IMG/VR virus record: IMGVR_UViG_3300005670_000014 | Span: 1 to 64,000 of that record | Source of the DNA: a virus | Taxonomy: Duplodnaviria > Caudoviricetes | Strand: one strand, 5' to 3' | DNA: 64,000 nucleotides | Part shown: positions 7,363 to 55,993 of the stretch, one piece after another | How the letters are laid out: every line of letters begins with the position of its first letter | How positions within the stretch are numbered: position 1 is the stretch's first letter | Position numbers and translations under genes: made by a program | The notes under the pieces: model-generated | Database searches by the model: none | What the model saw: the letters and a program-made list of their open reading frames with translations, nothing else | What the model was told of the DNA's origin: nothing

Positions 7363-7809
7363 TTAAAGTTCTCCAAATGCAGTAGTAAAAGGTGAATCTT
7401 CATGAATAACCGGCCAGATGTATGCAATTCGGGGTTGTTCGATCCAACCGAATTGAGAGTACCAATTTAAATCTTTGAATAAAAGAGCGGATCGGTGGCT
7501 TGAATGAAAATCTGTATTACCGAGCCACGGTGGAAATCTGAGTTTTGTTTGCTGAATGGGTAGTAATGGCATCCGGTTATTATAACCTCGCCGTATCCAT
7601 TCAGTAATGATCTCATTGTGATATAAAGCAAGAGCTTCACTGTATGGTCTCCACATGACCGTACATGGGTGATTCTTCCATGCCATCGCATGTGGATTCT
7701 TAATCGTGCGATAGACTACCAGTGCTTCATTGCGTTGATTACCTAATCTTCGGTAATCCAATACTTTGGCACTCTGTTGGAATGAAGGCAACGGAAGGAA
7801 TGTTTGCAT
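7363..7809 (-). CDS. Pyrimidine-dimer DNA glycosylase-like (MSMEG_6728/DenV-related)
   Basis: MQTFLP...SAKVLD.RRLGNQR.EA...W.NHP...MW...PPWLG...H.SHRS.LL.KD pattern. Confidence 0.8.
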   Translation of the reverse strand: MQTFLPLPSFQQSAKVLDYRRLGNQRNEALVVYRTIKNPHAMAWKNHPCTVMWRPYSEALALYHNEIITEWIRRGYNNRMPLLPIQQTKLRFPPWLGNTDFHSSHRSALLFKDLNWYSQFGWIEQPRIAYIWPVIHEDSPFTTAFGEL

Positions 7810-13961: not shown

Positions 13962-14004
13962 TGTAGTACCTTTTATGGTAAAAGCCATCCTTGGCAATTA
14001 AGTT

Positions 14005-18228: not shown

Positions 18229-18296
18229 GTTAATTCTCCGTTGGTGAATGGTGTACACCACACTCCATGATCTTATGGAGTGTGGTGATGAAAGTC

Positions 18297-19646: not shown

Positions 19647-19688
19647 TGTAATTCTCCGTAGTGAAGCCATCCTTGGCTTGGTATGGGA

Positions 19689-21813: not shown

Positions 21814-21890
21814 AACGGACTCCTTGAAAAAGTCCATAATACTATAGTTGATGCGTTGCAGCAAAGGCATCGCTGCAACGCACGTCTGGG

Positions 21891-23334: not shown

Positions 23335-23542
23335 CCACCTCATGGATGGTAATCGTGCTTTCATCATTTGAAAGCAGATTGAAGTCGTGTTCCAATGTGT
23401 GAGTAAGGCCCGTCATTGGATCTTCAAATTCACATCGAATGATGATCTTGACTCGATCTAATTTAGTGCCGGAACTGTAAAATGGAGCCTTGCTAAAACT
23501 CACTCTTGTTACGTTATGTAAAAACGTGGATTCAAGTATCAT
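23312..23542 (-). CDS. Hypothetical protein
   Basis: GGAG RBS; after a promoter. Confidence 0.65.
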   Translation of the reverse strand: MILESTFLHNVTRVSFSKAPFYSSGTKLDRVKIIIRCEFEDPMTGLTHTLEHDFNLLSNDESTITIHEVDDEESSG

Positions 23543-23589
23543 GTCAATTCTCCATCATTTCAGTGGGTTGTGCCATGCTGCGCAAATTC

Positions 23590-23618
23590 AGTTTAGCACA
23601 CGTTTGAAGAGTTTGCAA
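23590..23618 (-). promoter_or_regulatory. Early promoter
   Basis: TTGCAA-17-TAAACT with TG. Confidence 0.75.
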
Positions 23619-23620
23619 TA

Positions 23621-24181
23621 TTAAAGTTTGCAAAGCTTTTCAATGCGTCGGCAAATCCATTGGGTTCTGTTTGTATAGTCGGGATTTTTGTTATATGCTT
23701 CCAGTTTCTTATCCAGCAAATAATCCATGAGTTCTATGTAACTCAATTCCATGCAGTTTAGTAATATACAGCAGAGTTTTACAGTGGCTACACTTGCACA
23801 TCTTTGGTAGTAAGGTCTACCCTTAAAATCTTTTTGGTCAGTTTTGACCACCAAGCAGACTTCCATGAGTGGACTGCGATCTGGAAATTGTTTATTGACC
23901 GCTTCTGCATTGCTTGACCACGGCCCTTTTAACACCACTTCACTGCCGTCTTGCATGATAATGGGAATGTGTCTGCCACCAAAACCTCCATTATTATCTG
24001 GACCTTTCCAGTAGAAAAAGCTACCGAAACCTTCAGTATCTTCAGCCCGGTATACACCGCAGCGTTCTTCATAGCGAAAGCAATGTGCTTCCAAGGATTG
24101 GAACTGATCTACTTCGATCTCAATTTGAGGATCTGTATCCCAATTTAAGCATAAATCAATCTTAGCGCCAATGATGTTCAT
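23621..24181 (-). CDS. Conserved phage hypothetical (GFGGR...LKGPWSSN family)
   Basis: GGAG RBS before MNIIGA. Confidence 0.7.
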   Translation of the reverse strand: MNIIGAKIDLCLNWDTDPQIEIEVDQFQSLEAHCFRYEERCGVYRAEDTEGFGSFFYWKGPDNNGGFGGRHIPIIMQDGSEVVLKGPWSSNAEAVNKQFPDRSPLMEVCLVVKTDQKDFKGRPYYQRCASVATVKLCCILLNCMELSYIELMDYLLDKKLEAYNKNPDYTNRTQWICRRIEKLCKL

Positions 24182-24231
24182 ACTTAATTTCTCCGTAATG
24201 TGGATTGTTATACGCTTACTGGCGTAAGCGC

Positions 24232-24260
24232 AGTTTAGCACGGAATTAAAGAGTTAGCAA
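24232..24260 (-). promoter_or_regulatory. Early promoter with inverted repeat
   Basis: TTGCTA-17-TAAACT with TG; CGCTTAC-TGGC-GTAAGCG. Confidence 0.8.
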
Positions 24261-24264
24261 ACAT

Positions 24265-24738
24265 TTACTGTAGAAATGTACAGTTAAATGAAGTGCAACC
24301 TTCAGCGTATTCAAAGAATGCATCTTCAACATCGCTCTGCCATTTACAATATTCTTCAAACTCTTTATCGGGATCTGGAACCTCTTCTTCACCTAATTCA
24401 TTCGTAGCCCACATCAAAAGATCATAATGTGTTTCAGTTTTATCAGTCTGAATCCATCCAGCGAAACATCCATCCGTAGATGTTCCAATGAGATAACCCG
24501 TTCCATTTTCTCTAAAAAAATTGATGTTAGTCAGATTTCGATAGTAATAATTGGGAATATAAATCTGCATTTTATCATTGAAAATGGTGGGGAACTCTGT
24601 TACTCGATGACCATTTTCATTTAAAAAGTAACCCTCTTCATCAATCCAAAGACCTTTTTTTAAGATGTTGATTATTTTTAGAAATGAATCTTGGTCACTA
24701 AAAACAATCTCACCTTCCATACGTGAATAAAAGGACAT
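24265..24738 (-). CDS. Hypothetical protein
   Basis: GGAG RBS before MSFYSR. Confidence 0.7.
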   Translation of the reverse strand: MSFYSRMEGEIVFSDQDSFLKIINILKKGLWIDEEGYFLNENGHRVTEFPTIFNDKMQIYIPNYYYRNLTNINFFRENGTGYLIGTSTDGCFAGWIQTDKTETHYDLLMWATNELGEEEVPDPDKEFEEYCKWQSDVEDAFFEYAEGCTSFNCTFLQ

Positions 24739-24962: not shown

Positions 24963-25133
24963 TTAGTTCCTCTTCATGAAATAGTCATCGCTGGAAATAC
25001 GATGATCGCCTTCATCGTCAGTAATAATAATGGGTTGACCACAAGACCATCGTGCTAAATACATGGCAATGGTTAAGATTGTGCTATGAAATCGGCAGTG
25101 CATCCAAAAAGATTTTAAAGCGGATACCTTCAT
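24963..25133 (-). CDS. 56-aa hypothetical protein
   Basis: MKVSALKSFW...YFMKRN; GGAG RBS; below the ORF-track cutoff. Confidence 0.55.
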   Translation of the reverse strand: MKVSALKSFWMHCRFHSTILTIAMYLARWSCGQPIIITDDEGDHRISSDDYFMKRN

Positions 25134-25220
25134 CGTGAATTCTCCAGTGGAATAGTTGTACTGGAATATACAGATGTATCTTCCAGTACAACCACTCTGT
25201 ATTGAGTGGTTGTACTTTTA

Positions 25221-25562
25221 CTAGATGTTCATTAACATTCTAGCAATTTTTCGACCCACCTGCTCTACATTGTTAGCCTTCACTACGAACACATCTTGTC
25301 CATAAGCCGTCTTGAGTGACAGTCCGTTGGTAGATTGAAGCGCCACCAAATCTTCAATCAATGAATCTTCCATGCACACCAGCATCGGAATGTCCAGCAT
25401 CCTTAACACATTCACCAGTTCACCTATGCCCGGTGTGGTTGCGGCAACTTCCATCTTTCCACCAATCGAAACCATGGTAAAGAATTTGGATGGATTGTGA
25501 AAGTTTCTTGCTTTGGGAAGTATCTTGGACGTTTCGTAGTCTTGGCGATTTTCAATCATCAT
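25221..25562 (-). CDS. Hypothetical protein
   Basis: GGAG RBS before MMIENR. Confidence 0.65.
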   Translation of the reverse strand: MMIENRQDYETSKILPKARNFHNPSKFFTMVSIGGKMEVAATTPGIGELVNVLRMLDIPMLVCMEDSLIEDLVALQSTNGLSLKTAYGQDVFVVKANNVEQVGRKIARMLMNI

Positions 25563-25657
25563 TAATTCTCCGATTAGTGGGGGTATATCACACAATACAA
25601 CAAATCTGCTTGCTGTATTGTGTGATATACCCACATCTTATGATGTGGGTATTCAGT

Positions 25658-25861
25658 CTAGCGGTACTGTTGTGTTCGGTAATTCTTCCAGCTTTTGACT
25701 TGGTATGAACTTCTGACCCAATCATCCCATGCATTGGGAAGGTTACGTGCGGATCTGGCAGCACGTAATTTGATATTGACATCAAATTCTTTTGAGTCAA
25801 TAATCAGACCTGTCCACAGTTTACGCTCTTGAGTCGTTTTGGGGTGACGGTAATAAGACAT
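25658..25861 (-). CDS. Conserved small basic phage protein (R.PKTTQE...LP..WDD...SWK..R..Q family)
   Basis: Recognisable motif; AAGGAG RBS. Confidence 0.75.
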   Translation of the reverse strand: MSYYRHPKTTQERKLWTGLIIDSKEFDVNIKLRAARSARNLPNAWDDWVRSSYQVKSWKNYRTQQYR

Positions 25862-25871
25862 GATTCACTCC

Positions 25872-26129
25872 TTAATGTTGTCCAGAATCTCGGACGCGCC
25901 AAGTGTAACCATCATCATCTACACCGACGCACTCCAACAACTGCAATGAACTCCCTAATTCTTCCAGTACAGTATTGAGTTTGTTCTTGATGGGTTCCAT
26001 GTCATCCCAATACATGTGATCTGGTATAGCTTCTCCGTAAGCTATGACCGCATCTTCATTAATCTCGGATTCTAGCCAATCCATAATTTCTTGATCGTGC
26101 AACTTGCCAGACCATTCGATCTTTAACAT
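25872..26129 (-). CDS. Acidic hypothetical protein
   Basis: GGAG RBS. Confidence 0.65.
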   Translation of the reverse strand: MLKIEWSGKLHDQEIMDWLESEINEDAVIAYGEAIPDHMYWDDMEPIKNKLNTVLEELGSSLQLLECVGVDDDGYTWRVRDSGQH

Positions 26130-26169
26130 GTTAGTTCTCCGTAAAGTGCCATCCTTGGCAATGGAATCA

Positions 26170-26379
26170 TTAGTTTACTTTAACAACACAACCATCTTCA
26201 ATGGTTGCAGTAGCATACCATTTATGAGGCTGTGGGTAGTGTGGTCCTTCCAATGCTACCTTACCATTCTTGGGAGTATTGCCACCAAAAGGTCCGGGCT
26301 GGAAAATGGTCACGCGATCACCTTTGGCAATTGCTTCCTTCAAAGCTTTCTTTGTTTGAAAATTGGTGGAAGTATACAT
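26170..26379 (-). CDS. Conserved small phage protein (NFQTKK.LKEA...EGPHYP.PHKWYA family)
   Basis: Recognisable motif; GGAG RBS. Confidence 0.75.
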   Translation of the reverse strand: MYTSTNFQTKKALKEAIAKGDRVTIFQPGPFGGNTPKNGKVALEGPHYPQPHKWYATATIEDGCVVKVN

Positions 26380-26427
26380 GTTAATTCTCCAAGTTGTTCG
26401 TGGGTTGCGCAAAATTGGCGCAATCGC

Positions 26428-26456
26428 AGTGTATCACGCCAATGAAGATTTTGCAA
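26428..26456 (-). promoter_or_regulatory. Early promoter
   Basis: TTGCAA-17-TACACT with TG; TGGC at the conserved position (26416-19). Confidence 0.75.
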
Positions 26457-26460
26457 TGAA

Positions 26461-26634
26461 TTATACTAAAAACACAGTCAAAATCTTGAATGTGTTTAAA
26501 GTAAAATCTTGGCTGAGTAAATTCTCCACAGCCAATCTTGCCATTTCAGCGCATGTTGCGCCAAATCGAAAAGAACTTTTACGAATACTGTTCTTACGAG
26601 TCACAGCAATGTACGTAATTCTGAATTCGTTCAT
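26461..26634 (-). CDS. 57-aa hypothetical protein
   Basis: GGAG RBS before MNEFRI. Confidence 0.55.
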   Translation of the reverse strand: MNEFRITYIAVTRKNSIRKSSFRFGATCAEMARLAVENLLSQDFTLNTFKILTVFLV

Positions 26635-26683
26635 GACTAATTCTCCAAGTTTTCCAGTGCTTACACCATGCTGGCGCATGGCA

Positions 26684-26712
26684 ATTTTAACACGGCATTT
26701 AAGAGTTTGCAA
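26684..26712 (-). promoter_or_regulatory. Early promoter with inverted repeat
   Basis: TTGCAA-17-TAAAAT with TG; CCATGC-TGGC-GCATGG. Confidence 0.8.
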
Positions 26713-26719
26713 ATAATAC

Positions 26720-26748
26720 TTGACAACTAACTTTAGTTTCTGTATAGT
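26720..26748 (+). promoter_or_regulatory. Rightward sigma70 promoter, back-to-back with the leftward one
   Basis: TTGACA-17-TATAGT. Confidence 0.75.
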
Positions 26749-26876
26749 GAACACACTCCGTAGTAAGAGAAAAGAGTGCTAAAGATTTTATATCAGGTTG
26801 CTTTGTTTGATGTTCGGTTCTGCACTCCGATTACTACCTTCAAACAAAACAACCTTTTTATTTGGAGATTTTTAAA

Positions 26877-27758
26877 ATGATTACGTTAAAACGTCGAGAA
26901 ATAAAGCCCGTTTTAGTTTCCAATCAAGACGGTAAATTGAAAACGGATTCTTTAATTGTGGCGCGAGTGTTTGAAAAAGAGCATTTTAATCTGATGCGTG
27001 ATATTAGAAACATTACAGAATCAGATACGTATCTGAAGCGAATTAAAAATGGTACACAACCCAATTTTGAATTGTGCTTTAGAATCAATGAATTAGCCAA
27101 TGGTAAAAGAGTTCCTTACTACGAAATGGATCGTCAAGGTTTTGAAATTCTGGCAATGGGCTTTACGGGTGAAAAAGCACTAGAATGGAAATTTAAATAT
27201 TCTGATGCATTTGCTGCAATGGAAGAATTGTTGAAAAAGGAGCGTATTGTTGTTCAAGATAATCCGTTCAATTTGGAAGAGTTAGGTTTGGGATTGTTGC
27301 AAGTTGGATCTGAGCAACGACAAACAGCTAAACAGGTGCGTTGTCGTTGGGTGAACATCTTGCAAAATTCCATTGGTTGTGGAAACATCTGGGTTTGTCG
27401 TTTGACTAATGAAATCTACCAAAGTTTGTTGAATTGTCCGCAAGCAAACGCCAGAAATTTTCGTCAGCACATGAATCTTCCATTGATCTCTGCCATATTT
27501 TTGACGCGGGATCAATTAGAGGGCCACATACAGTCTTTCGTTACCGACATTGAATTGAGTGCAATCAGATTGTATTCTTTAAATCGTGAAGTCACCTTTG
27601 GCGAAATTCGGGAATTTATGTTGGGACAAGCTAAGATGTACCATAAGCAGTTGGTACGAATTGCACAGCAACCACCTTCAGCATTAGTGTTTGATCATGA
27701 ATACAATGTGGTGCCAATTCTTCCATACCGTGGAAGAAGGATGCAACAAACAGAGTAA
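26877..27758 (+). CDS. Rha-family regulator (full length)
   Basis: TDSLIVARVFEKEHFNLMRDI...PNF...YYEMDRQGFEILAMGFTGEKALEWKFKY..AF..ME; GGAG RBS. Confidence 0.85.
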   Translation: MITLKRREIKPVLVSNQDGKLKTDSLIVARVFEKEHFNLMRDIRNITESDTYLKRIKNGTQPNFELCFRINELANGKRVPYYEMDRQGFEILAMGFTGEKALEWKFKYSDAFAAMEELLKKERIVVQDNPFNLEELGLGLLQVGSEQRQTAKQVRCRWVNILQNSIGCGNIWVCRLTNEIYQSLLNCPQANARNFRQHMNLPLISAIFLTRDQLEGHIQSFVTDIELSAIRLYSLNREVTFGEIREFMLGQAKMYHKQLVRIAQQPPSALVFDHEYNVVPILPYRGRRMQQTE

Positions 27759-27867
27759 TACACTCCACTCTGCCAATACGCCGGGGTGATGTAAATTTTC
27801 ATCTTAATCATTGCAATTCATCAGATTTTACAGATAAAGTCTTAACGCCACTTCTCAATCTCGCCCC

Positions 27868-27890
27868 AAAAATCCCGCCCGAAGGCGGGA
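27868..27890 (-). terminator. Intrinsic terminator with UUCG tetraloop
   Basis: Minus strand TCCCGCC-TTCG-GGCGGGA-TTTTT. Confidence 0.8.
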
Positions 27891-27905
27891 GTGGAAGATC
27901 ATAGT

Positions 27906-28025
27906 TTAAACTGCGTGATAATCTCCGGTGAACGAATTGGGCGGGTTAATGATTTCTACAATAATCATCGACCCGATCAGATAGTACGTGTAACCCGGAT
28001 ATTGAAACGTAGTAAAAGGCAGCAT
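27906..28025 (-). CDS. 39-aa peptide (MLPF paralog)
   Basis: MLPFTTFQYPGYTYYLIG...; GGAG RBS. Confidence 0.5.
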   Translation of the reverse strand: MLPFTTFQYPGYTYYLIGSMIIVEIINPPNSFTGDYHAV

Positions 28026-28036
28026 ACAATTCTCCG

Positions 28037-28180
28037 TCACAATAAGTTCAGTTCTAAATCCCACAATGGGAAGGTGAAAACCTTGTACTCATTGACGGGT
28101 TGATGAATCTGCATGACGCAATGTTCAGCCAGCAGATAAAATGTTACGTCATCACCTGGCAAAGCGGCAAATGGTAGCAT
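28037..28180 (-). CDS. 47-aa peptide (MLPF paralog)
   Basis: MLPFAALPGDDVTFYLLA...; GGAG RBS. Confidence 0.5.
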   Translation of the reverse strand: MLPFAALPGDDVTFYLLAEHCVMQIHQPVNEYKVFTFPLWDLELNLL

Positions 28181-28191
28181 GTAAGTCTCCA

Positions 28192-28497
28192 TTATGGTTG
28201 GAAACCAAATTCAGAATCATCGGGGTCGTCATAGCCCCCTTGTTCCGGGCATTCTTCATCGTGCGTATCGGGGTCACAAACACCACCACAATCTGCGCAC
28301 ACCCACACGCTGTTCTCTTTGGACGTGGCAAATCGGTCATAACGACCTTTTGTTTCCAGCGGGTAATCTTCCGTGAGTGCCTTTTGTATGGTTTCGTGGT
28401 ATGCCGTAGCACACCCAGTTTCTTCATCACATGGGAAAAATCCATCTTCCGACCGATAATCTTCCCAACCGGGGCAACCCGTATTGAACATGCACAT
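28192..28497 (-). CDS. Cys-rich (Zn-binding) acidic hypothetical protein
   Basis: C....CP, CADCGGVC...CP; GAGG RBS. Confidence 0.6.
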   Translation of the reverse strand: MCMFNTGCPGWEDYRSEDGFFPCDEETGCATAYHETIQKALTEDYPLETKGRYDRFATSKENSVWVCADCGGVCDPDTHDEECPEQGGYDDPDDSEFGFQP

Positions 28498-28510
28498 GGT
28501 AATTCTCCTC

Positions 28511-28732
28511 TTACGCGGAATAGCGATTAATGATCTGACGATCCACGATGTAATCAAACCCTTGCCGATCTACATCGGCCAGCGTGAATAATGGACGACT
28601 CTCTTCATCCAGCACCACAATGGACACTAGATTTTCACGATGGTCTTGTGCCAACAATTCGTTAGCCCATTCTACCAACGCATCAAATGACGAATCGTTC
28701 TTCCATTGTGCAAATGACATGGCGCGAAGCAT
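28511..28732 (-). CDS. Hypothetical protein
   Basis: GGAG RBS; after a promoter. Confidence 0.65.
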   Translation of the reverse strand: MLRAMSFAQWKNDSSFDALVEWANELLAQDHRENLVSIVVLDEESRPLFTLADVDRQGFDYIVDRQIINRYSA

Positions 28733-28782
28733 ACTTAATTTCTCCGTAGTGTTGGGGTGTTTACGCTTACTGGCGTAAGCGC

Positions 28783-28811
28783 AGTTTAGCACGGTTTAAA
28801 AGAGTTTGCAA
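28783..28811 (-). promoter_or_regulatory. Early promoter with inverted repeat
   Basis: TTGCAA-17-TAAACT with TG; CGCTTAC-TGGC-GTAAGCG. Confidence 0.8.
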
Positions 28812-29117
28812 CTATGGAACGATCTTGGGTGTACGAAGTACCACAAATTCTTCCAATGTCGCACCGAGTTCTTCCATTTTGTCGGCAGTGATCTCCATAC
28901 CCCGTAAATCTGCTGGAATGTTTAATACCAGATGGAAGTAACGTCCTTGTCGATCCCAAATTTCGGCAGCGAGATGGATGGGTAGTGTTCCCAACACCAC
29001 GTCACCTTTTTCGACAGTCTTCACATCGAAATGCTCAACAATCTGAGCATCAAAGCCTTTACGCGCTGCCCAATCTTTGGCACCTTGATGCCGGGTCACA
29101 AAATAAGTCTTAGCCAT
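28812..29117 (-). CDS. csx16: Csx16 (Cas_VVA1548)-family protein, stand-alone; candidate viral ring nuclease
   Basis: TYFVTRHQGAKDWA...VEHFD...GDVVLGTLPIHLAAEI...GRYFHLVL.IP..LRG.EIT...M...GATLEEF covers the whole Csx16 pattern. Confidence 0.85.
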   Translation of the reverse strand: MAKTYFVTRHQGAKDWAARKGFDAQIVEHFDVKTVEKGDVVLGTLPIHLAAEIWDRQGRYFHLVLNIPADLRGMEITADKMEELGATLEEFVVLRTPKIVP

Positions 29118-29118
29118 G

Positions 29119-29199
29119 TTAGCGATCTCGTCTAAAAGTAGTGGACAAAATATAAAGAATCATGCCGAAAATAACGGCAAGCATAATGATCTCACTCAT
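29119..29199 (-). CDS. 26-aa single-pass membrane peptide
   Basis: MSEIIMLAVIFGMILYILSTTFRRDR; GGAGG RBS. Confidence 0.5.
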   Translation of the reverse strand: MSEIIMLAVIFGMILYILSTTFRRDR

Positions 29200-29257
29200 C
29201 AAACACCTCCATTAATTCGTGGATAAAAGCCATCCTTGGCTCAAGAATGCTGTTTAG

Positions 29258-29908
29258 CTAGTTTTTGAATTGCCGCCAGCACTCTCTAACATGGTCTACA
29301 ACATTCATCGGATTATGACCTCCGATCTTGTTGCGTGGATGTTCTTCATCAATCCATGGGGAGTCGTTATACTCTAGCCAGTGCCAAAATTGGTTTTGGA
29401 CTCTGGCTACAGCTTCTTTACCACCCAAGTCGCCTTCACACGCGACTAGCCATTCACGTCTGACGTATACGGGATGCGTCGGCAGTATAAATTCTGCTGA
29501 TGTAGCGGGGATGCTACCTTCGGGCCGCTTGACATCTACCCACCACGCATACGGTGCGTGTTGGTAATTCTTCAATTCACTATCTAACACTGGAAAATCT
29601 TCCAGTGCTGATGCACCCAAGCACAAGTAGCCGTAGTAATCTCCATCCTCAACGAGTTCGTCATCATCCGTGGGAAACGGAATCTCGGCAATGAACACAG
29701 TGATCTCCACCGGACCCAATCTGTGTTCCGGGTCAATGGTATCCCACAGCGGGATGGGTGTCTTAACCTTCCATAGTTGGCCCACATTTGCATCTTTCGG
29801 CTGTACATGTGCAAAGTCTGCCCGTGCTTTGGTGGTGCGGGCGATGGCGTCTTTCACGAACGCTGGAACTTCTACCACTTGAGCAGTGGCCTTTTGAAAC
29901 TCGGACAT
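29258..29908 (-). CDS. Hypothetical protein
   Basis: GGAG RBS. Confidence 0.7.
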   Translation of the reverse strand: MSEFQKATAQVVEVPAFVKDAIARTTKARADFAHVQPKDANVGQLWKVKTPIPLWDTIDPEHRLGPVEITVFIAEIPFPTDDDELVEDGDYYGYLCLGASALEDFPVLDSELKNYQHAPYAWWVDVKRPEGSIPATSAEFILPTHPVYVRREWLVACEGDLGGKEAVARVQNQFWHWLEYNDSPWIDEEHPRNKIGGHNPMNVVDHVRECWRQFKN

Positions 29909-30012
29909 GGAGTATCTCCGGGTGGATGAAACAACAAATGGGTTTTAATGCAAGCATACCTTGTGACGACATGCTTGCATTAAAACCCACTCTTGCGAGT
30001 GGGTTATGGGGA

Positions 30013-30888
30013 TTACGCCGCCTTGGCCGCCTTGGCCGCTTTGCCCGACTTGCCAGTCTTGACAACTGGGGGCTTGATGACCTTAACGGTAGCATCCGGC
30101 TTGGCAGTCTCGGGCTTGGTCTCTGCCGCTTTAGCCAAAGTAGCGGCCTTTTGCGCCTGGACTTTCTTCATCGCCGCTTGTGCAGCCGTGGCGAAGTCTT
30201 TAGCACCCGACAATCGCTTGGCAACGGTCAAGCCACCTTCCGCTAGCAAGTTAGCAAATTTCTTTTGCGACTCAATGGCTTGCAGCACCTCATCGGTGGG
30301 CAACAATTCTTGATTTTCATGGAAGCAGCGAATCTCGGATGCACTCCCATCCATAGCGTAGTCTTCCATGCAGCCGTAATCTAGTGTGGTATACGCTGAT
30401 GGAATCTTAGTAATGGGCGCACCCACCTTTACTGAACGGGAAGTACCTACCCACAACGATTGGGTAGCGGCCATTCTCCAGCTTTGCGCCCACGCAATGA
30501 ACTCTTGTGGCCTACCCGTCTTGGCAGCATCCTTACTCTTGTGCCGATCCACCTTTGACTTGCTGTTGGCGTTAAACGCCAATACAAATCTGGGTGCTGT
30601 TCCGCAAGCATAGCCTACGCTCACGGGATCGGCAATCGTTTGGTATTCTTTGGGGATGAATTCCCCTTTTTGGAAAGTTTCCCAGTTCTCCAGCATCCAT
30701 GCGATTGTGGGGAAATTCCCTGCGTTGCACAAAAGGTGTGCGAACATATTCGCTTCCATGCTCTTATTACTCACCGCCAAACCTGCGGTTGCCGTAGCAC
30801 ACCGTTTCAATTCTAGCCCGGTGATCTGTTTGATCAGTACCAAAGCCTCTTCGCGTTGTTGCTTCACTAAACTGTTATCTTTAGCCAT
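30013..30888 (-). CDS. Hypothetical protein with Lys/Ala-rich (histone H1-like) tail
   Basis: GGAG RBS before MAKDNS; tail KAAETKPETAKP...KTGKSGKAAKAAKAA. Confidence 0.7.
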   Translation of the reverse strand: MAKDNSLVKQQREEALVLIKQITGLELKRCATATAGLAVSNKSMEANMFAHLLCNAGNFPTIAWMLENWETFQKGEFIPKEYQTIADPVSVGYACGTAPRFVLAFNANSKSKVDRHKSKDAAKTGRPQEFIAWAQSWRMAATQSLWVGTSRSVKVGAPITKIPSAYTTLDYGCMEDYAMDGSASEIRCFHENQELLPTDEVLQAIESQKKFANLLAEGGLTVAKRLSGAKDFATAAQAAMKKVQAQKAATLAKAAETKPETAKPDATVKVIKPPVVKTGKSGKAAKAAKAA

Positions 30889-30968
30889 GCTATATTCTCC
30901 GCAGCGCATTAAAGCGCATTTAAAAGTCTCAAAAAAAGCGCCATGCATTGCCATGCTGGCGCAAATGG

Positions 30969-30997
30969 ATTTTAGCACACTCGAAAAGAATGTGCAA
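30969..30997 (-). promoter_or_regulatory. Early promoter
   Basis: TTGCAC-17-TAAAAT with TG; CCATGC-TGGC-GC at the conserved position. Confidence 0.75.
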
Positions 30998-31006
30998 CGG
31001 TTAATT

Positions 31007-31174
31007 TTAAAATTCTGGCAATGCAATTACATCCAGCACTTCATCTGCCCATGTAGCTGCTTTCAGCACCTGATGCTTAGCATCCGCCTCATTAACAGCC
31101 ATCAGACACAAATTGATTTCCGTTCCATGGAAATCATCTTCAATAACATACACCACCACGATGAATTCTTTCAT
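31007..31174 (-). CDS. 55-aa hypothetical protein
   Basis: MKEFIVVVCII...; GGAG RBS; below the cutoff. Confidence 0.6.
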   Translation of the reverse strand: MKEFIVVVYVIEDDFHGTEINLCLMAVNEADAKHQVLKAATWADEVLDVIALPEF

Positions 31175-31223
31175 GACGTATTCTCCGTAAATGCGCTAGT
31201 CCACTATGTGCTGGCGCGTTTGC

Positions 31224-31252
31224 AGCATAACATGCTGCGGAAGAGTTTGCAA
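31224..31252 (-). promoter_or_regulatory. Early promoter
   Basis: TTGCAA-17-TATGCT with TG; TGGC at 31212-15. Confidence 0.75.
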
Positions 31253-31260
31253 CTATTTCG

Positions 31261-31470
31261 TTAAGAGTGTTGCAAACTATTTGCAGAACTAAATGCACGA
31301 TCTCCGTGCTTATCCCAACATGATGGGTAAATCACCTGTTGTTTCCGGCTCTCATAAAAGCCGGAACCATCCAAAAAGAGCGTCAACATTACATCGGGTG
31401 CTAAGATGATGTTGATGCCAGTATCTTTGTATCCAAATGATGCGAATTTCTCCGCCATTGAACCGTTCAT
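31261..31470 (-). CDS. Hypothetical protein
   Basis: AAGGAG RBS. Confidence 0.6.
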   Translation of the reverse strand: MNGSMAEKFASFGYKDTGINIILAPDVMLTLFLDGSGFYESRKQQVIYPSCWDKHGDRAFSSANSLQHS

Positions 31471-31649
31471 GTTAACTCCTTATAAATCACATCGTCCAAA
31501 TATCTGGACGCTTGGGTGTAAGTGACTTTAAATTCTTTAGCAAAGTCACACAAAAAGGCGTGGGTTGCAGCGGGGGACGTCTTGCCACGCAAGATGAAAT
31601 CCATCACACGCTCTTTGCATTTCAAATCCAATGCGCTCATCTGACTCAT
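31467..31649 (-). CDS. Hypothetical protein
   Basis: ATGA overlap with the upstream gene. Confidence 0.55.
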   Translation of the reverse strand: MSQMSALDLKCKERVMDFILRGKTSPAATHAFLCDFAKEFKVTYTQASRYLDDVIYKELT

Positions 31650-31957
31650 TTCCAATCCTCCATCTCTGCTAGTTCATCGTAGTACAACTCTGTTTCCTCG
31701 TCATAGTCATCATCTGACCATTTCTGGGCAGTAGTTTGGAATGATGAAAAATTAGCCAAGTTGCTCAAGTAGAACATTTTGAACATCTTGGTTTTGCCGG
31801 TAACATCATCCCAATCCAGCAAGTTTTCTTCGTACACATACGATCCATCCTTGAGTTTATGGATGACATCCGATTCTTCCATGGGTTCGAATCTGGATTC
31901 GACAACATTTTGTAAATCTAACTGCTGATTTTCTACAACCATGTGGGCTAACGACAT
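31646..31957 (-). CDS. Acidic hypothetical protein
   Basis: GGAG RBS before MSLAHM. Confidence 0.6.
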   Translation of the reverse strand: MSLAHMVVENQQLDLQNVVESRFEPMEESDVIHKLKDGSYVYEENLLDWDDVTGKTKMFKMFYLSNLANFSSFQTTAQKWSDDDYDEETELYYDELAEMEDWK

Positions 31958-32045
31958 GACAATATCTCCAGTTGTGGATGGGTACATCGGTATATACATT
32001 TGCATATACCGATGTACCCACTCTTGCGAGTGGGTACTAAAACTC

Positions 32046-32282
32046 TTACACGGCCATATCCAATCGGAAAACCATCTTCCGATAGCTTTCCAACTTCTGC
32101 CGCTTGGGCTGCAAGTAGTCTTTACGATCACGGTTGCGCGATCCCATCTTGGAACCATCGCGCACTTCCTTAGCGCAATTCTCCAACAGCCGTGCCAACC
32201 ACATGGCATCTCCAGTTTGCCATGCGTGATACAGCGGCAAATCTTTGGATTTCGTTTGTGGACTACGGAAAGTTCTGCTCAT
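32046..32282 (-). CDS. Basic hypothetical protein
   Basis: GGAGGT RBS before MSRTFR. Confidence 0.6.
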   Translation of the reverse strand: MSRTFRSPQTKSKDLPLYHAWQTGDAMWLARLLENCAKEVRDGSKMGSRNRDRKDYLQPKRQKLESYRKMVFRLDMAV

Positions 32283-32283
32283 T

Positions 32284-32523
32284 TCACACCTCCCAAGCTG
32301 ACCAATCAAAGTCGGCAGATTTCACAATCCAGTTGCCATCTTTAAAAATGGCGCTTTTCGCTTCCAAACCTTTGCCGCATTTCTCCACGGCGGCAACTGC
32401 ATAGTCCATGACTTCTTGAGCCGTAGCATCCTTACCAACCCGTCCGTAGTAGACGGGGTTGGACTCTCCCCATTGGACAAGCACTTGCCCTTTGGGGTTG
32501 GGCAGTTTAAATTCTTTCAGCAT
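32284..32523 (-). CDS. Hypothetical protein
   Basis: GAGG RBS before MLKEFK. Confidence 0.6.
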   Translation of the reverse strand: MLKEFKLPNPKGQVLVQWGESNPVYYGRVGKDATAQEVMDYAVAAVEKCGKGLEAKSAIFKDGNWIVKSADFDWSAWEV

Positions 32524-32617
32524 GGCATTTTCCTCTTTTATGGATGGGTACATCAGTAAGTACATCTTGCACTTACTGATGTACCCACACCTTTCACAGT
32601 GTGGGTACGGAAACGAA

Positions 32618-32854
32618 TTACTCGATAATCTCATTGGGGACAGCACCGCCCCAATCTTCCAGCCGCAACCGGAATTTATCTGACGGATATGCTGCACGAA
32701 TCCGTTTTAGCTCTTTCAAAGCCGACTCTCGTGTAATGGGACGCATGACTTTGAAATCTACGAATTCACCCGTTTCCAGGATCTCAATGACCGCATTATC
32801 CACATTTCCGGGAATTAAGAACGGACGACTAAAAACCGGAATTGAATAGTTCAT
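32618..32854 (-). CDS. Hypothetical protein
   Basis: GGAG RBS before MNYSIP. Confidence 0.6.
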   Translation of the reverse strand: MNYSIPVFSRPFLIPGNVDNAVIEILETGEFVDFKVMRPITRESALKELKRIRAAYPSDKFRLRLEDWGGAVPNEIIE

Positions 32855-33078: not shown

Positions 33079-33155
33079 GTCAATTCTCCGTGGTTGTGGG
33101 GGTAAAGTCTCTTCATTCGGTGGTACGAATGAACGCACCACCTGATGAAATTACT

Positions 33156-33503
33156 CTACATGGAAATTAAGCAATCTTTGCGTGGCGAATACTTGAATTT
33201 CCATTGTTTATTATCTTTTAGTCCCGTGAATACGTATTTTTTGGATACGATTTGGGCCTTGACATCAGCATATCCATTCTTTTCCAGTGTTCGACACAGT
33301 GTGTTACGATCTTTCACCGGAAGTTTGGAATGCCAATCTTCCGATACCCATGATATTGCTCTTTGTGGCTCTCCATTTTCGTTGGTGCCGCAAATCAGCA
33401 AATCCAATTCTGGCTTACTTTGCACAACGTAAGCGATACACTCATCTTTCGATCCATAAAACCGGAACGATCCCCCGCATTCTTGCACGATTACGAAGTT
33501 CAT
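33156..33503 (-). CDS. Hypothetical protein
   Basis: GGAG RBS before MNFVIV. Confidence 0.65.
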   Translation of the reverse strand: MNFVIVQECGGSFRFYGSKDECIAYVVQSKPELDLLICGTNENGEPQRAISWVSEDWHSKLPVKDRNTLCRTLEKNGYADVKAQIVSKKYVFTGLKDNKQWKFKYSPRKDCLISM

Positions 33504-33613: not shown

Positions 33614-33681
33614 GTTAATTCTCCGTGGTGGACAAAATAAACTCAACAATAGCCGCATAAGAACGCGGCTATCAGCAAAGT

Positions 33682-39905: not shown

Positions 39906-39973
39906 GATTAATTCTCCAAGTAATATTTCATGAAGAGCGTTACGTATTACATCTTACGTAACGCTCTATGATT

Positions 39974-40930: not shown

Positions 40931-41186
40931 AATACAATGCAACAGTCCTGGAATTGTGACTGTAGCATTGTTGGGTTGTTTCATGTAAAACAAAACTAGG
41001 ACAGCATTAGTTTTGTTTCATATGAAACAAAACTAGCGCCCTGCTACAATCCAGTGACAGGGCGCATTGTGTTACTTTTTGACAATATCCTTAATTGTCA
41101 AGGGTTTAGTTAGCAGCATGTTTGCTGCTGTCAGATATGCTAGGGTCTGTGCCCTAGCAGTGGCTTGTTCAACGTTGAGCATTGCC

Positions 41187-51026: not shown

Positions 51027-51081
51027 CAGTCCATGCACGATAATTTATATCGTGCATTTTTTATTGCCATGAGGTTTGATT

Positions 51082-54000
51082 ATGTCTTTTCAATCCGTAT
51101 CTAACTCTGTATATTCCAATAAATATCAATTGTTCGATAAGCATGGCAATGAGGTCGATGAGAGTAGAAGTCATAGTTTTATGCGAGTGGCTCAAGCATT
51201 GGCTAAAAATGAAAAAGATTGTCGATATTGGACGGATGTCTTTTTTGAAGCAATGGTGAGTGGTGCAATACCTGCTGGAAGAATTATGAGTAATGCGGGT
51301 GCTGAGGAACACAAACCAAATACTTCGCAGATCAACTGCGTCGTTGCAGATACAATCTATGACTCTATCGAATCAATTGGACAATCCGTAAAAGATTCTT
51401 TAATTACTCTATCTGGTGGTAGCGGAATTGGTTACGACTTCAGTTCTTTACGTCCCAAAGGATCTTTTGTTAATGGAGTGGGTAGCACCACATCTGGCCC
51501 GTTACCTTTTGCTGATATTTTTGATAAAGGCTGTTTTACCATTGCATCAGCCGGTGGAAGACGTGGTGCACAGATGGCAACATTTGATTTACGTCATCCA
51601 GATGTGTTAGCTTTTATTAAAGCTAAACGAGAAAATGGACGATTTCGACAATTTAATATTAGTGTGCTCGTTCCTCATTCATTTTTTAATGAAGAAAAAG
51701 ATTGGATATTTCGTTTTCCCATTCGTAGTTCTGATCCTGCATTGGATACTGCGGAAACGATGTGGGATACATGGCATATTAAAGATGCTGCATATATCAC
51801 GAATGAACATGGACAGACTTTATTTAAAATTTATGGCAAGATGCCAAAATCAGAATTATGGAATTTAATACTTCAATCTAATTATGAGTATGCTGAACCA
51901 GGTGTTATTTTTATAGATCGCGTGAACGAAGAAAATAATTTATGGTTTTGTGAAGAAATTAGAGCTTCTAATCCGTCAATGCCAGCGGGAACTTTGGTAC
52001 ACACCAATCTTGGTATTTTGCCTATTGAAGAATTAGAAAATCAACTTTTTTCAGTAAGATCTTTAGATGGTTGTTGGGCACCTGCAAGTTGTCGTTTGTC
52101 AGGAGAAGCCGAAACTCTTATGGAAATTAATTTTGGTAACTATAAGACTATCCAAGCTACACCTAAACATCTATGGCCGGTTTTAAATTCTTTTGGAAAA
52201 ATTGTAAAGAAAGAAACTAGTGAATTAAAAGCTGGTGATTTAATTCCTCTCAATCTAAATCTTCCATTAGAATTCAATGTAGACCCTACATTGACTGAAG
52301 ATGAGGGATTTTTAGTGGGCGTTTTTATGGGAAATGGCTGGCTTTCATCCCGCGTTGATGGTACAGGTTATGCTTTTGGGATTAGTTTTAACAAGTTGGA
52401 TATTAAAGTAGCTGAAAGAACCCTGTCAATTTTAAATCAGTACAAAAACAATCCTTCGTCCATCAAGGAAAATGCACATGAATTAAGTATTCAACTTACT
52501 TCAAAGGCATTTATTGAATGGTTTATGTTGCGTTTTGGAATTTTTCCTAAAACTAAAGATTTACCTTTAGTTTTATTTAAAAGCAATGATTACTTCATTC
52601 GAGGTTTTATTGATGGGTTGTTTTCAACGGATGGCAGTATTTCTGAAGGCAATGATTTTCGTGGAGGTTGTATAATTTTTAGTCAAAAATCAGAGTCTTT
52701 TACTATGAACTTAGCTAAATTGCTGAGTTTTTATGGAATAAAAACATCTGTTTGGAAAACTGAAAGTTCTAACACTGTATTTCCAAATGGAAAATCGTAT
52801 AATAAAAGTTACACAGCTTTCGCTGTGAAACTTGCTAATTCAGCATCAAAAGCATTTGCTTCGTTATTTAATTTAACTTGTGAAAGAAAACAAGCAAAAT
52901 TAGATTTTTTGGTTTTAAGAAAACCAAAAAAATCTAAAATAACAAATCTTTATAATGAAGTAAAAACTGTTACATATGTTCAAGGTGCTCATAAAGTTTG
53001 GGATATTTCAGTACAACATGATCAACATGTTTTTCCAACTGAATGGGGTTATACAGGAAACTGTGGCGAACAGATGCTTCCACCAAACAATTCATGTTTA
53101 TTAGGTTCTATTGATCTGACTCAGTTTGTTGAACAACCTTTCACGGATGATGCTCATTTTGATTTCAGTAATTTTTCCAACACTGTAGATGTATTTACAC
53201 GAATGTTGGATAATGTAGTAGAGTTTAATAATTTACCGTTAAAGTCTCAACAAGATGAAATTTTACAAAAACGTCGGCATGGAATGGGCTTTTTTGGTTT
53301 AGGCTCTGCTTTAATTATGCTGTGTATTCATTATGATTCTAAAACAGCGTTAGACTTTGCAGAAAAAGTAACGAAATTGATGGCAATTCGTGGGTATGTC
53401 ACGGGTTGTGCATTGGCTGAAGAAAAAGGTTGTGCACCCGTACTGAATGAGTATTTTGAGATTACTCCAGAGATTGTTAGAAAGAATGAATTATTTAAAG
53501 ATCAGTTAGGACAAAAAGTTAAAGGTATTGAATTATTTTTGGCAAGTCCATACATGCAACGTTTATTAGCAGATGAACCTGAATTAAAAGATCGATTGTT
53601 GAGACATGGCTGCCGTTTTAGTCATCACACCTCTATTGCACCTACGGGTACAATCTCTTTAGCATTTGGAAACGGAGCATCTGGAGGTATCGAACCTTCT
53701 TTCTCCCATTGTTATTTTCGTAATTTAACAGTACAAGATAAGAAAACTCGACAACAGGAAGCCGTGTACAGTAAAGAGTTTTTGTTGTATAAAGAATTAT
53801 ATGGACAAAATAAAACGGACGAAGAATTGTTAAAACATCTACCGGATTATTTTGTGACTGCGGATACCATTTCATGGAAAGCCCATATAGACATGGTGGC
53901 TGTCGTACAAAAGTGGGTGGACTCTTCAATTAGTAAAACCTGTAATGTACCCACTAATATTACTTTAGAAGAGTTTAAAGGTATTTATGATTATGCCTAT

Positions 54001-54225
54001 AAAGTAGGTTGTAAGGCAGTCTCCACATTTCGTTATAATCCTGAAACTTTAGGGTCGATTTTAAGTCGAAGTGAAGACTTAGCCAATAGTAGGTATGAAT
54101 TTAAATTAGCTGATGGTACGGTGATCCAATGTGCAGGTGGTGATCGTGTTGAATACGATGGTGAAATAACCACGGCTGAAAATTTGTTTTCCGCTTTGAA
54201 AGAGAATACTTATGGAAAATTCTAA
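51082..54225 (+). CDS. nrdJ: Class II (B12-dependent) ribonucleotide reductase large subunit, intein-containing
   Basis: PAGR, NC, GGGIG, RRGAQM, EPGVIFID, split NP|CGEQ, C.LGSI, IAPTGTIS, DSSISKT. Confidence 0.92.
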   Translation: MSFQSVSNSVYSNKYQLFDKHGNEVDESRSHSFMRVAQALAKNEKDCRYWTDVFFEAMVSGAIPAGRIMSNAGAEEHKPNTSQINCVVADTIYDSIESIGQSVKDSLITLSGGSGIGYDFSSLRPKGSFVNGVGSTTSGPLPFADIFDKGCFTIASAGGRRGAQMATFDLRHPDVLAFIKAKRENGRFRQFNISVLVPHSFFNEEKDWIFRFPIRSSDPALDTAETMWDTWHIKDAAYITNEHGQTLFKIYGKMPKSELWNLILQSNYEYAEPGVIFIDRVNEENNLWFCEEIRASNPSMPAGTLVHTNLGILPIEELENQLFSVRSLDGCWAPASCRLSGEAETLMEINFGNYKTIQATPKHLWPVLNSFGKIVKKETSELKAGDLIPLNLNLPLEFNVDPTLTEDEGFLVGVFMGNGWLSSRVDGTGYAFGISFNKLDIKVAERTLSILNQYKNNPSSIKENAHELSIQLTSKAFIEWFMLRFGIFPKTKDLPLVLFKSNDYFIRGFIDGLFSTDGSISEGNDFRGGCIIFSQKSESFTMNLAKLLSFYGIKTSVWKTESSNTVFPNGKSYNKSYTAFAVKLANSASKAFASLFNLTCERKQAKLDFLVLRKPKKSKITNLYNEVKTVTYVQGAHKVWDISVQHDQHVFPTEWGYTGNCGEQMLPPNNSCLLGSIDLTQFVEQPFTDDAHFDFSNFSNTVDVFTRMLDNVVEFNNLPLKSQQDEILQKRRHGMGFFGLGSALIMLCIHYDSKTALDFAEKVTKLMAIRGYVTGCALAEEKGCAPVLNEYFEITPEIVRKNELFKDQLGQKVKGIELFLASPYMQRLLADEPELKDRLLRHGCRFSHHTSIAPTGTISLAFGNGASGGIEPSFSHCYFRNLTVQDKKTRQQEAVYSKEFLLYKELYGQNKTDEELLKHLPDYFVTADTISWKAHIDMVAVVQKWVDSSISKTCNVPTNITLEEFKGIYDYAYKVGCKAVSTFRYNPETLGSILSRSEDLANSRYEFKLADGTVIQCAGGDRVEYDGEITTAENLFSALKENTYGKF
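51976..53061 (+). mobile_element. Intein with LAGLIDADG endonuclease (362 aa) in NrdJ
   Basis: ASNP|SMPAGTLV...TEWGYTGN|CGEQ; LVGVFMGNG and FIDGLFSTDG motifs. Confidence 0.9.
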
Positions 54226-55540: not shown

Positions 55541-55992
55541 TGATGAATATTATGACCCCGGCTGAAGCTTTTGAACGTTATTATGATTTAGGTGTTAAGC
55601 GTAATTTATTACGTTTATCTAAGATCATTGGTATTGAATTTGATTTATTGTCCAGTTGGGCGGATGGTTATGCATGGGATGAAAAAGTTGAAGCACGGGA
55701 TAAAGAAGTTAATCGAGTTTTTGAACAAGTATACAAACAACGTACTTTAGACATTCGAAATCGACTAGTAAGACAGATTGATACTTTATTAAAAGATATG
55801 GAAAGTTGTAGTTTGGGGTTGCCATTCGGGGTAACGTCTCCTGCTGAATTACGTTCAGTTGCACAGGCGTATCGAGAGTTAGTTCAAGCGAATGTATTAG
55901 CGATGACTAAAGGTGTGGATATGGGTGGTGGTAAAGCGCCTAAGACTTGGAGTGATTTGTTAGAGCAAATTGAAAATACGGAAACTGAATGA
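55540..55992 (+). CDS. Putative terminase small subunit
   Basis: AFERYYDLG..R.L..LS...L..WA..Y.W.E..EARD HTH pattern, directly before terL. Confidence 0.55.
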   Translation: MMNIMTPAEAFERYYDLGVKRNLLRLSKIIGIEFDLLSSWADGYAWDEKVEARDKEVNRVFEQVYKQRTLDIRNRLVRQIDTLLKDMESCSLGLPFGVTSPAELRSVAQAYRELVQANVLAMTKGVDMGGGKAPKTWSDLLEQIENTETE

Positions 55993-55993
55993 C

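Follow-up and report, generated by a model that had tools for sequence, protein, structure and literature searches.

What do two RNA hairpins that share an arm, and that recur five times between the early genes of one phage, do for the transcript that carries them? The question is raised by the first 64 kb of the record IMGVR_UViG_3300005670_000014, the whole stretch of DNA analysed here and referred to as the window, in which an earlier note had picked out five overlapping double hairpins between genes (E1 to E5 in the following) as a candidate conformational switch or processing signal. Phages crowd many small genes of unknown function into their early regions, and the way in which expression is partitioned amongst them is poorly understood outside T4 and T7. 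The five elements belong to a family that is real, conserved and unannotated. They may well be promoter-less intercistronic RNA cassettes acting on the messenger RNA (mRNA) as punctuation for its stability or processing, a reading that we hold with about even confidence and that would make them akin to the promoter-early stem-loop (PeSL) cassettes of T4-type phages (PMC2839356, PMC4122927).

The record of this phage (G000) comprises 88,785 bp at 39% G+C and is estimated to be 68% complete. Near-identical DNA was found in wastewater, activated-sludge and bioreactor metagenomes, and a megablast search of 50,697 phage records gave no match to a deposited phage. The elements lie within a series of about 79 small genes on the minus strand, from about 5 to 42 kb, nearly all of which are preceded by the ribosome-binding site GGAGAAUU. 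These are early operons of an uncultivated tailed phage of wastewater or activated sludge, and they appear to be read by the RNA polymerase of the host. A search for a phage-encoded T7-like RNA polymerase gave no match in the record, which is uninformative, as the control search of the polymerase family matched no genome.

Five overlapping double hairpins

On the minus-strand transcript all five elements are built in the same order, with the stop codon of the upstream gene followed by 4-9 nt, the short hairpin, the long hairpin, 9 nt (19 in E3), the Shine-Dalgarno sequence (SD) GGAG (GAGG in E5) and AUG (Table 1). The location that the earlier note had described, just after a stop codon and before the next SD, holds at every site, and its stem lengths of 9-13 bp for the short hairpin and 12-19 perfect bp for the long one were both confirmed. 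The two copies with an identical CCCACUC-GCAA-GAGUGGG cap are E3 and E4, and the three long-stem loops that begin with GCAA and end with UGU are those of E2, E4 and E5. The nucleotides common to both stems number 8 in E1, 6 in E2 and E3, and 7 in E4 and E5.

A scan of the whole record looked for neighbouring perfect Watson-Crick stems, each 8 bp or longer, that overlap by 5 nt or more, the 3' arm of the first with the 5' arm of the second. Six such double stems are present in the 88,785 bp, namely E1 to E5, at exactly the positions noted earlier, and an unrelated pair at 40988-41035. By chance about 0.07 would be expected per genome (two in total in 30 dinucleotide-preserving shuffles), and the long stems of E1 to E5 rank among the longest inverted repeats of the window. 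A first, more permissive finder of double hairpins, in which G.U pairs and mismatches were allowed, returned mostly noise and an energy-filtered version was used instead.

Table 1. Positions in the window of the five elements and of other features of the early operons (aa, amino acids).
Feature	Position	Strand	Description
E1	25155..25216	-	between 113-aa gene (25221-25562) and 56-aa gene (24963-25133)
E1 short hairpin	arms 25185-25197, 25204-25216	-	13 bp, transcript loop AAUACA
E1 long stem	arms 25155-25166, 25181-25192	-	12 perfect bp, ~22 with G.U and a bulge
E2	25581..25652	-	between 67-aa gene (25658-25861) and 113-aa gene (25221-25562)
E2 short hairpin	arms 25627-25637, 25642-25652	-	11 bp, loop AUAA
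E2 long stem	arms 25581-25599, 25614-25632	-	19 bp, loop GCAA...UGU
E3	29939..30005	-	between 291-aa gene (30013-30888) and 216-aa gene (29258-29908)
E3 short hairpin	arms 29984-29992, 29997-30005	-	9 bp, GCAA cap
E3 long stem	arms 29939-29957, 29971-29989	-	19 perfect bp, up to 27 with G.U
E4	31979..32037	-	between 78-aa gene (32046-32282) and 103-aa gene (31646-31957)
E4 short hairpin	arms 32014-32023, 32028-32037	-	10 bp, GCAA cap
E4 long stem	arms 31979-31995, 32004-32020	-	17 perfect bp, 20 with G.U
E5	32545..32608	-	between 78-aa gene (32618-32854) and 79-aa gene (32284-32523)
E5 short hairpin	arms 32581-32590, 32599-32608	-	10-11 bp
E5 long stem	arms 32545-32561, 32571-32587	-	17 perfect bp, 21 with G.U
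Leader below E4	31958..31978	-	UCCAC box, 4-nt spacer, GGAGAU Shine-Dalgarno, AUG
Equivalent leaders	25134-25154, 25563-25580, 29909-29938, 32524-32544	-	below E1, E2, E3 and E5
Canonical intrinsic terminator	27873-27890	-	UCCCGCC-UUCG-GGCGGGA and U run; identical in L130, L128 and G001
Promoter cassettes, TTGCAA-N17-TAAA(A/C)T	26640-26720, 28740-28810, 30900-31000, 31190-31260, 24180-24267, 23540-23623, others	-	
Small hairpins, GCCA-AGGA-UGGC	26147-26160, 19664-19679, 13984-13995, 29228-29241	-	in ~40-nt gaps just upstream of SDs
Single strong hairpins	33085-33160, 33647-33674, 18256-18287, 39934-39967, 21830-21880	-	other intergenic gaps of early operons

Conservation of the family in related phages

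Searching with an 18-mer of the short hairpin led to G002, a 111-kb viral contig syntenic with the E1-E5 region, while searches and homolog look-ups with the 291-aa and 678-aa proteins led to G001, to four further contigs, L127-L130, which are 61-87% identical in the 291-aa protein, and to a 99% identical strain, L123. Members of the family are found in all seven of these related wastewater and sludge contigs, in the same sub-region and in the same orientation. With the relatives included there are 18 double copies and at least five solitary short hairpins. Rfam had nothing at the gathering score, and permissive thresholds gave only sub-threshold matches to microRNA-precursor hairpins, in agreement with the earlier note, which had recognised no named family.

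The constant module is the short hairpin, positioned 4-11 nt past the stop codon, with the core CCCACUC/GAGUGGG and mostly a GNRA cap. RNAalifold predicted nine pairs from 19 copies, and at six of these compensatory changes on both sides are seen, which bears out the earlier observation that the sequences vary between copies while the pairing is kept. The CCCAC/GUGGG part of the core is almost invariant in these copies, and the core is retained even where protein identity between the phages is down to about 58%. GNRA caps survive substitution, as GCAA, GAAA or GUAA; across the family the loops ACCA, AUAA and UAAC and hexaloops also occur. Orthologs of E3 are present in L123, L129 (with the cap GAAA), L130, L127 and L128 (both with a different long stem) and G001 (short hairpin only), and amongst them there is one change from G-C to U-A, in L130, and several from G-C to G.U. 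In L129 the E3 element is about 93% conserved, against about 82% for its flanks, and E4 is identical within flanks that are 96% identical. The E2 ortholog in L130 carries two pyrimidine-pyrimidine mismatches within the long stem. At E5 the long-stem sequence is largely replaced in L129, L128, L127 and G001, with the pairing and the overlap with the short hairpin retained.

The long hairpin evolves fast and is optional, though where present it abuts the short hairpin, never with a spacer. After the 291-aa gene one version of the long stem is found in G000, L123, L129 and L130 and another in L127 and L128, and there is none in G001. At the E1 site of L130 a promoter cassette of the sigma-70 type stands behind the short hairpin in place of the long stem; together with the leader motif common to both arrangements, this shows a modular build, in which a 3' hairpin is joined to a 5' module.

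The shared arm and the ribosome-binding site

Wherever a long stem exists its base re-uses the 3' arm of the short hairpin (18 of 18 double copies). A three-way covariation links the upstream copy, the shared arm and the downstream copy, whose outer bases vary in concert from copy to copy of the element (GUAC, AAC/GUU, AUAC, UAAAAC, CACC and others), and the sequence preceding the short hairpin and that following the long stem are direct repeats, so that the two pairings of the shared arm should be almost equal in energy. Consistent with this, the partition function gave probabilities of 0.31-0.64 for pairing of the arm upstream and 0.35-0.64 for pairing downstream in 16 of the 18 copies. Only 5-13 of the 17-27 pairs of the long stem are contested, and both hairpins would therefore be present in either register; in the minimum-free-energy folds they stand side by side. 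The shared arm is, on these predictions, a sliding junction rather than the hinge between two exclusive conformers. The mutual exclusion of the stems proposed in the earlier note was overstated, as the overlap is confined to the base of the long stem, the hairpins coexist and the arm is divided roughly 50:50. An expression platform would consist of exclusive hairpins, one of them a terminator or a sequestor of the SD; here the hairpins coexist and the SD lies outside both.

At none of the five sites is the SD part of either stem. Forcing open the 13 nt that would lie under a terminating ribosome had little effect on the predicted accessibility of the SD, and no consistent direction. With a long hairpin that is dispensable and that still forms despite the overlap, these predictions do not support the conformational switch coupled to downstream translation suggested earlier. 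The UCC(A) box that was thought to pair with the SD is present just upstream of it, but the pairing would amount to at most 3-4 bp and is not conserved. The UCC(A)/CCAC box belongs to a more general leader motif, (A)ACCCAC, which is found before about 25 of the 79 early genes, including genes behind promoter cassettes. CCCAC is the most enriched 5-mer before early genes.

Strand asymmetry and breaks in homology

In 14 of the 18 copies the predicted fold of the sense RNA is the more stable, by 2-10 kcal/mol over the antisense, and the sense strand holds 32 G.U pairs to 6 in the antisense. This comparison of strand energies was used because a hand tally of one-sided substitutions among orthologs, with about five of the G.U type, one or two of the A.C type and five other mismatches, is too small to decide. 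Together with the fixed orientation relative to transcription, the bias upholds the description of E1 to E5 as a repeated element that is structured as RNA.

Comparison with L130 reveals that homology stops at the end of E3 (29940) and, in E1, where the short hairpin gives way to the long one (25187). The unit formed by E2, the 113-aa gene and the short hairpin of E1 is found elsewhere in L130 and is absent from G002, and neither L130 nor L128 has the 216-aa gene that lies behind E3. The E3 short hairpin is lengthened in L130 by 3 bp, into the arm of the long stem. The elements also act as junctions of mosaic gene exchange, a second role like that of the PeSLs.

Terminators and promoter cassettes

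A U tract is absent behind either hairpin in four of the five elements, while the long stem of E3 is U-tailed and scores as terminator-like. As candidates for intrinsic terminators, G+C-rich hairpins followed by a U run, the elements were therefore rejected apart from the E3 long stem. No promoter-like site was found within E1 to E5, and the genes downstream have no promoter of their own. Promoters are found in a sister design, present in at least 12 copies in the early region and also in G002 and L130, in which a covarying hairpin with a GCCA loop (UACGCCAGUA) stands directly behind the promoter, followed by the ACCCAC leader and the GGAGAAUU site. The promoter reads TTGCAA-N17-TAAAAT in the first four cassettes of Table 1. 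The five elements belong to a clade-specific family of intercistronic hairpin cassettes, and the operons draw on a toolkit of modules that all lead into the common leader and the GGAGAAUU site: a promoter may be joined to a 5' hairpin, and a short 3' hairpin may either stand by itself or be joined to a long 5' one.

At about 30930-30960 on the minus strand, before the 291-aa gene, a hairpin followed by seven U lies directly behind a promoter and is conserved in G002 (L120, about 7475-7510); it looks like a leader terminator or attenuator.

Sequence patterns taken from the short hairpin are not confined to the family. More than 120 unrelated genomes carry the 18-mer, most of them just once, and in the unrelated viral contigs L002 and L004 it forms an ordinary terminator of hairpin and U run. 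A CRISPR-repeat mimic (RNA anti-CRISPR) was considered and rejected, as the 18-mer is a common stand-alone hairpin without array-like spacing save for one 205-bp tandem repeat. This tandem repeat, three copies of the hairpin at 205-bp spacing, is in L184:7523-7950, a bacterial contig from an Oscillospiraceae metagenome-assembled genome that is unrelated to the phages. The palindromic pattern TACCCAC-N6-14-GTGGGTA gave more than 113 unrelated single matches in viral contigs and is therefore not specific.

Discussion

If the elements are punctuation on the mRNA, the short hairpin would form a 3' stability barrier that protects the upstream message, and the long hairpin (17-27 bp) would give the downstream message a structured 5' boundary and might also be cut by a double-strand RNase of the RNase III type. 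With the shared sequence repeated directly on either side, the helix junction should be free to slide, at no net cost in energy, and invasion by a ribosome or a nuclease from either side would leave the unit folded. Once the long stem had been cut, the short hairpin could re-form in full as a 3' cap. Such a mechanism would borrow from the RNase III sites of T7 (PMC3867540) and from the PeSLs (PMC2839356, PMC4122927), sharing some but not all of the defining features of each. A more specific proposal is that the arm-sharing pair is a branch-migrating hand-over device, in which a ribosome, terminating upstream or initiating downstream, or a double-strand cut in the long stem would shift the fold so that the upstream message keeps its GNRA-capped 3' hairpin and the downstream leader is released. 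We regard this as doubtful, but if true it would reveal a new principle by which cistrons are kept apart in polycistronic phage mRNA. A functional shared arm would offer a simple and portable means of insulating or processing neighbouring cistrons; were it a mere by-product, the elements would still mark points at which gene cassettes are exchanged, extending the PeSL idea beyond T4-like viruses.

Several observations weigh against a role as punctuation. The long stems in this genome are perfect Watson-Crick palindromes, and the apex of the E5-type long stem in L127:9175-9239 (AACGATCTTGATT) is the exact reverse complement of that in L128:9180-9244 (AATCAAGATCGTT), a flip of the loop between inverted repeats; both are signs of palindrome dynamics at the level of DNA. 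Relative to the 99% identical L123, 7 of the 31 substitutions fall inside E3 and E4, some of them breaking pairs, which shows that the sites are changeable. Contigs from activated-sludge RNA libraries (X17, X18) run across E4 and, if they do represent RNA, E4 is not completely cut or terminated; they derive from one activated-sludge sample, cover parts of the region other than E1-E3, and cannot show ends, strand or level, and their breaks at palindromes are artefacts of assembly. No gene for RNase III was found in the record. In T7, moreover, internal loops direct single-strand cuts, whereas the stems here are perfect.

One alternative is that the elements are a DNA-level phenomenon with no role in RNA, produced by template-switching growth of palindromes (quasi-palindrome correction) or serving as recombination or cruciform sites, with the overlap a by-product of two palindromes extending outward. 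The perfect palindromes in all five long stems and the inverted apex would be explained, as would the 3-bp extension of the E3 short hairpin in L130, the homology breakpoints at the edges of the elements and the enrichment of substitutions in E3 and E4 of L123. It would not be expected, however, that the orientation strictly follows transcription, that the position is fixed between stop codon and SD, that the sense fold is the more stable with G.U pairs almost only in the sense strand, that GNRA caps are kept through substitutions, or that the core of the short hairpin is conserved between phages with such diverged proteins; moreover, neither a tyrosine integrase (PF00589) nor a Y1 transposase (PF01797) has a match in the record. 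As a full account it seems unlikely to us, although, as is the case with the PeSLs, processes at the RNA and the DNA level can both be true at once. Somewhat less likely still is a bistable RNA switch, in which the hairpins compete for the shared arm and a terminating ribosome or a phage RNA-binding protein sets the state, thereby gating translation or cleavage downstream. Such a switch would fit the complementarity of the arm to both partners in every double copy, with three-way covariation and no spacer, the near-equal energies of the two states, the start of the short hairpin 4-11 nt past the stop codon, at the leading edge of the terminating ribosome, and the fact that the conserved leader motif ACCCA(C) coincides with the shared sequence in its downstream copy. 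It is hard to reconcile with a long hairpin that forms in both states and is absent at orthologous sites, where in the case of E1 in L130 a promoter cassette stands instead, and with an SD that is outside the stems and shows no consistent change in predicted accessibility. A protein that reads the loop is also argued against, by the lack of conservation in the loops and by the inversion of one apex from one relative to another.

A protein might instead read the CCCACUC/GAGUGGG stem itself, as an antiterminator of the N/boxB kind or in mimicry of a CRISPR repeat. The sequence of the stem, and not its pairing alone, is conserved across diverged phages, and the apparent promoter-proximal terminator at about 30930-30960 is in the same operon, downstream. 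The loops nevertheless vary widely, the 18-mer is found as single copies in many unrelated bacteria and nowhere in a CRISPR array, and neither Pfam nor PHROGs offered a candidate partner amongst the flanking proteins; this reading is very improbable. Hardly better placed, and if anything slightly less probable, is the view that the elements terminate or attenuate transcription between early genes, as does the stem-loop half of a PeSL. G+C-rich hairpins do follow directly on stop codons, efficient termination in reporters is on record for the stem-loops of PeSLs (PMC2839356), the E3 long stem is terminator-like, and in L002 and L004 the 18-mer hairpin serves as a hairpin and U-run terminator. 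Against this, four of the five elements have no U tract, canonical terminators are located where they would be expected, as at 27873-27890, where the relatives conserve one, and efficient termination would silence the downstream genes, which have no promoter of their own. The RNA-library contigs spanning E4 are a weak further point against it.

Comparison with known systems

No named counterpart of the arm-sharing design was found, and the closest parallels are known intercistronic regulatory cassettes. Like PeSLs, the elements are intergenic cassettes of about 60-100 nt that are repeated many times among small early genes without known relatives (ORFans), their sequence is conserved amid diverged flanks, and they mark places where related phages have gained, lost or swapped genes, as seen in the two breakpoints against L130, the relocated unit with the 113-aa gene and the variable 216-aa gene. 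True promoter-plus-hairpin cassettes are likewise present in the early operons here. Unlike PeSLs, E1 to E5 lack the strong sigma-70-like promoter, which their sister cassettes possess, and they consist of two abutting hairpins that share an arm, with no U tract in four of five. With its HK97-type capsid the phage is not T4-like, unlike the carriers of PeSLs.

The early polycistronic mRNA of T7 has five RNase III sites between cistrons, for which the ideal substrate is 22 bp, and the 3' hairpins left on the products stabilise the upstream message (PMC3867540). Here too there are five hairpins between cistrons of an early polycistronic transcript. Their long stems have 12-19 perfect bp, and with G.U pairs and one mismatch counted they reach 20-27 bp, which would bring them near two helical turns and within range of the ideal for RNase III. 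There is no similarity in sequence to the T7 sites, and T7 has no counterpart of the second, arm-sharing hairpin.

The REP and BIME sequences of enterobacteria are repeated intercistronic palindromes in polycistronic mRNAs that can protect the upstream mRNA from 3' exonucleases and that mark points of rearrangement. They resemble the elements in being repeated, transcribed and intercistronic. REPs, however, are chromosomal, number hundreds of copies, have a conserved head of the GTAG type and are linked to RAYT transposases, while the present elements differ from REPs and REPINs in sequence and in the lack of a Y1 transposase match in the record. The lack of a tyrosine integrase match similarly sets them apart from cassette sites of the integron attC type. 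In attenuators, whether of the antiterminator/terminator kind or of the erm-type translational kind, the 3' arm of a first hairpin is also the 5' arm of a second, behind a translated open reading frame (ORF). The elements have this topology and this position just behind an ORF, but the second hairpin is neither a terminator nor a sequestor of the SD, and the overlap is too short to abolish it.

Other features of the record

Other intergenic gaps of the early operons also hold hairpins (Table 1). The GCCA-AGGA-UGGC hairpins are a third intergenic hairpin family. Several of the single strong hairpins are followed by a CCCAC or CCAC leader, and that at 18256-18287 has the stem CACCACACUCC, similar to the short-hairpin family.

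Pfam and PHROGs gave no function for the nine small proteins encoded next to the elements or for the 678-aa protein. For a 101-aa early gene at 28812-29117 on the minus strand, the orthologs in L127, L128 and L130 are labelled PF09652 (Cas_VVA1548, Csx16-like) in precomputed Pfam annotation. Besides the HK97-type capsid the record encodes a portal and a ribonucleotide reductase, the large subunit of which bears an intein with a LAGLIDADG domain; a 901-aa ORF just before the portal gene has a LAGLIDADG domain too (51073-54222 and 55964-58666). Outside the window, at 67068-81089 of G000, one ORF alone runs to 4674 aa and presumably encodes a giant tail protein or tape measure. At 40976-41046, in a gene-poor stretch near a strand switch, a different overlapping double palindrome is built on TTTGTTTCATATGAAACAAA, and it may mark an origin or a genome end.

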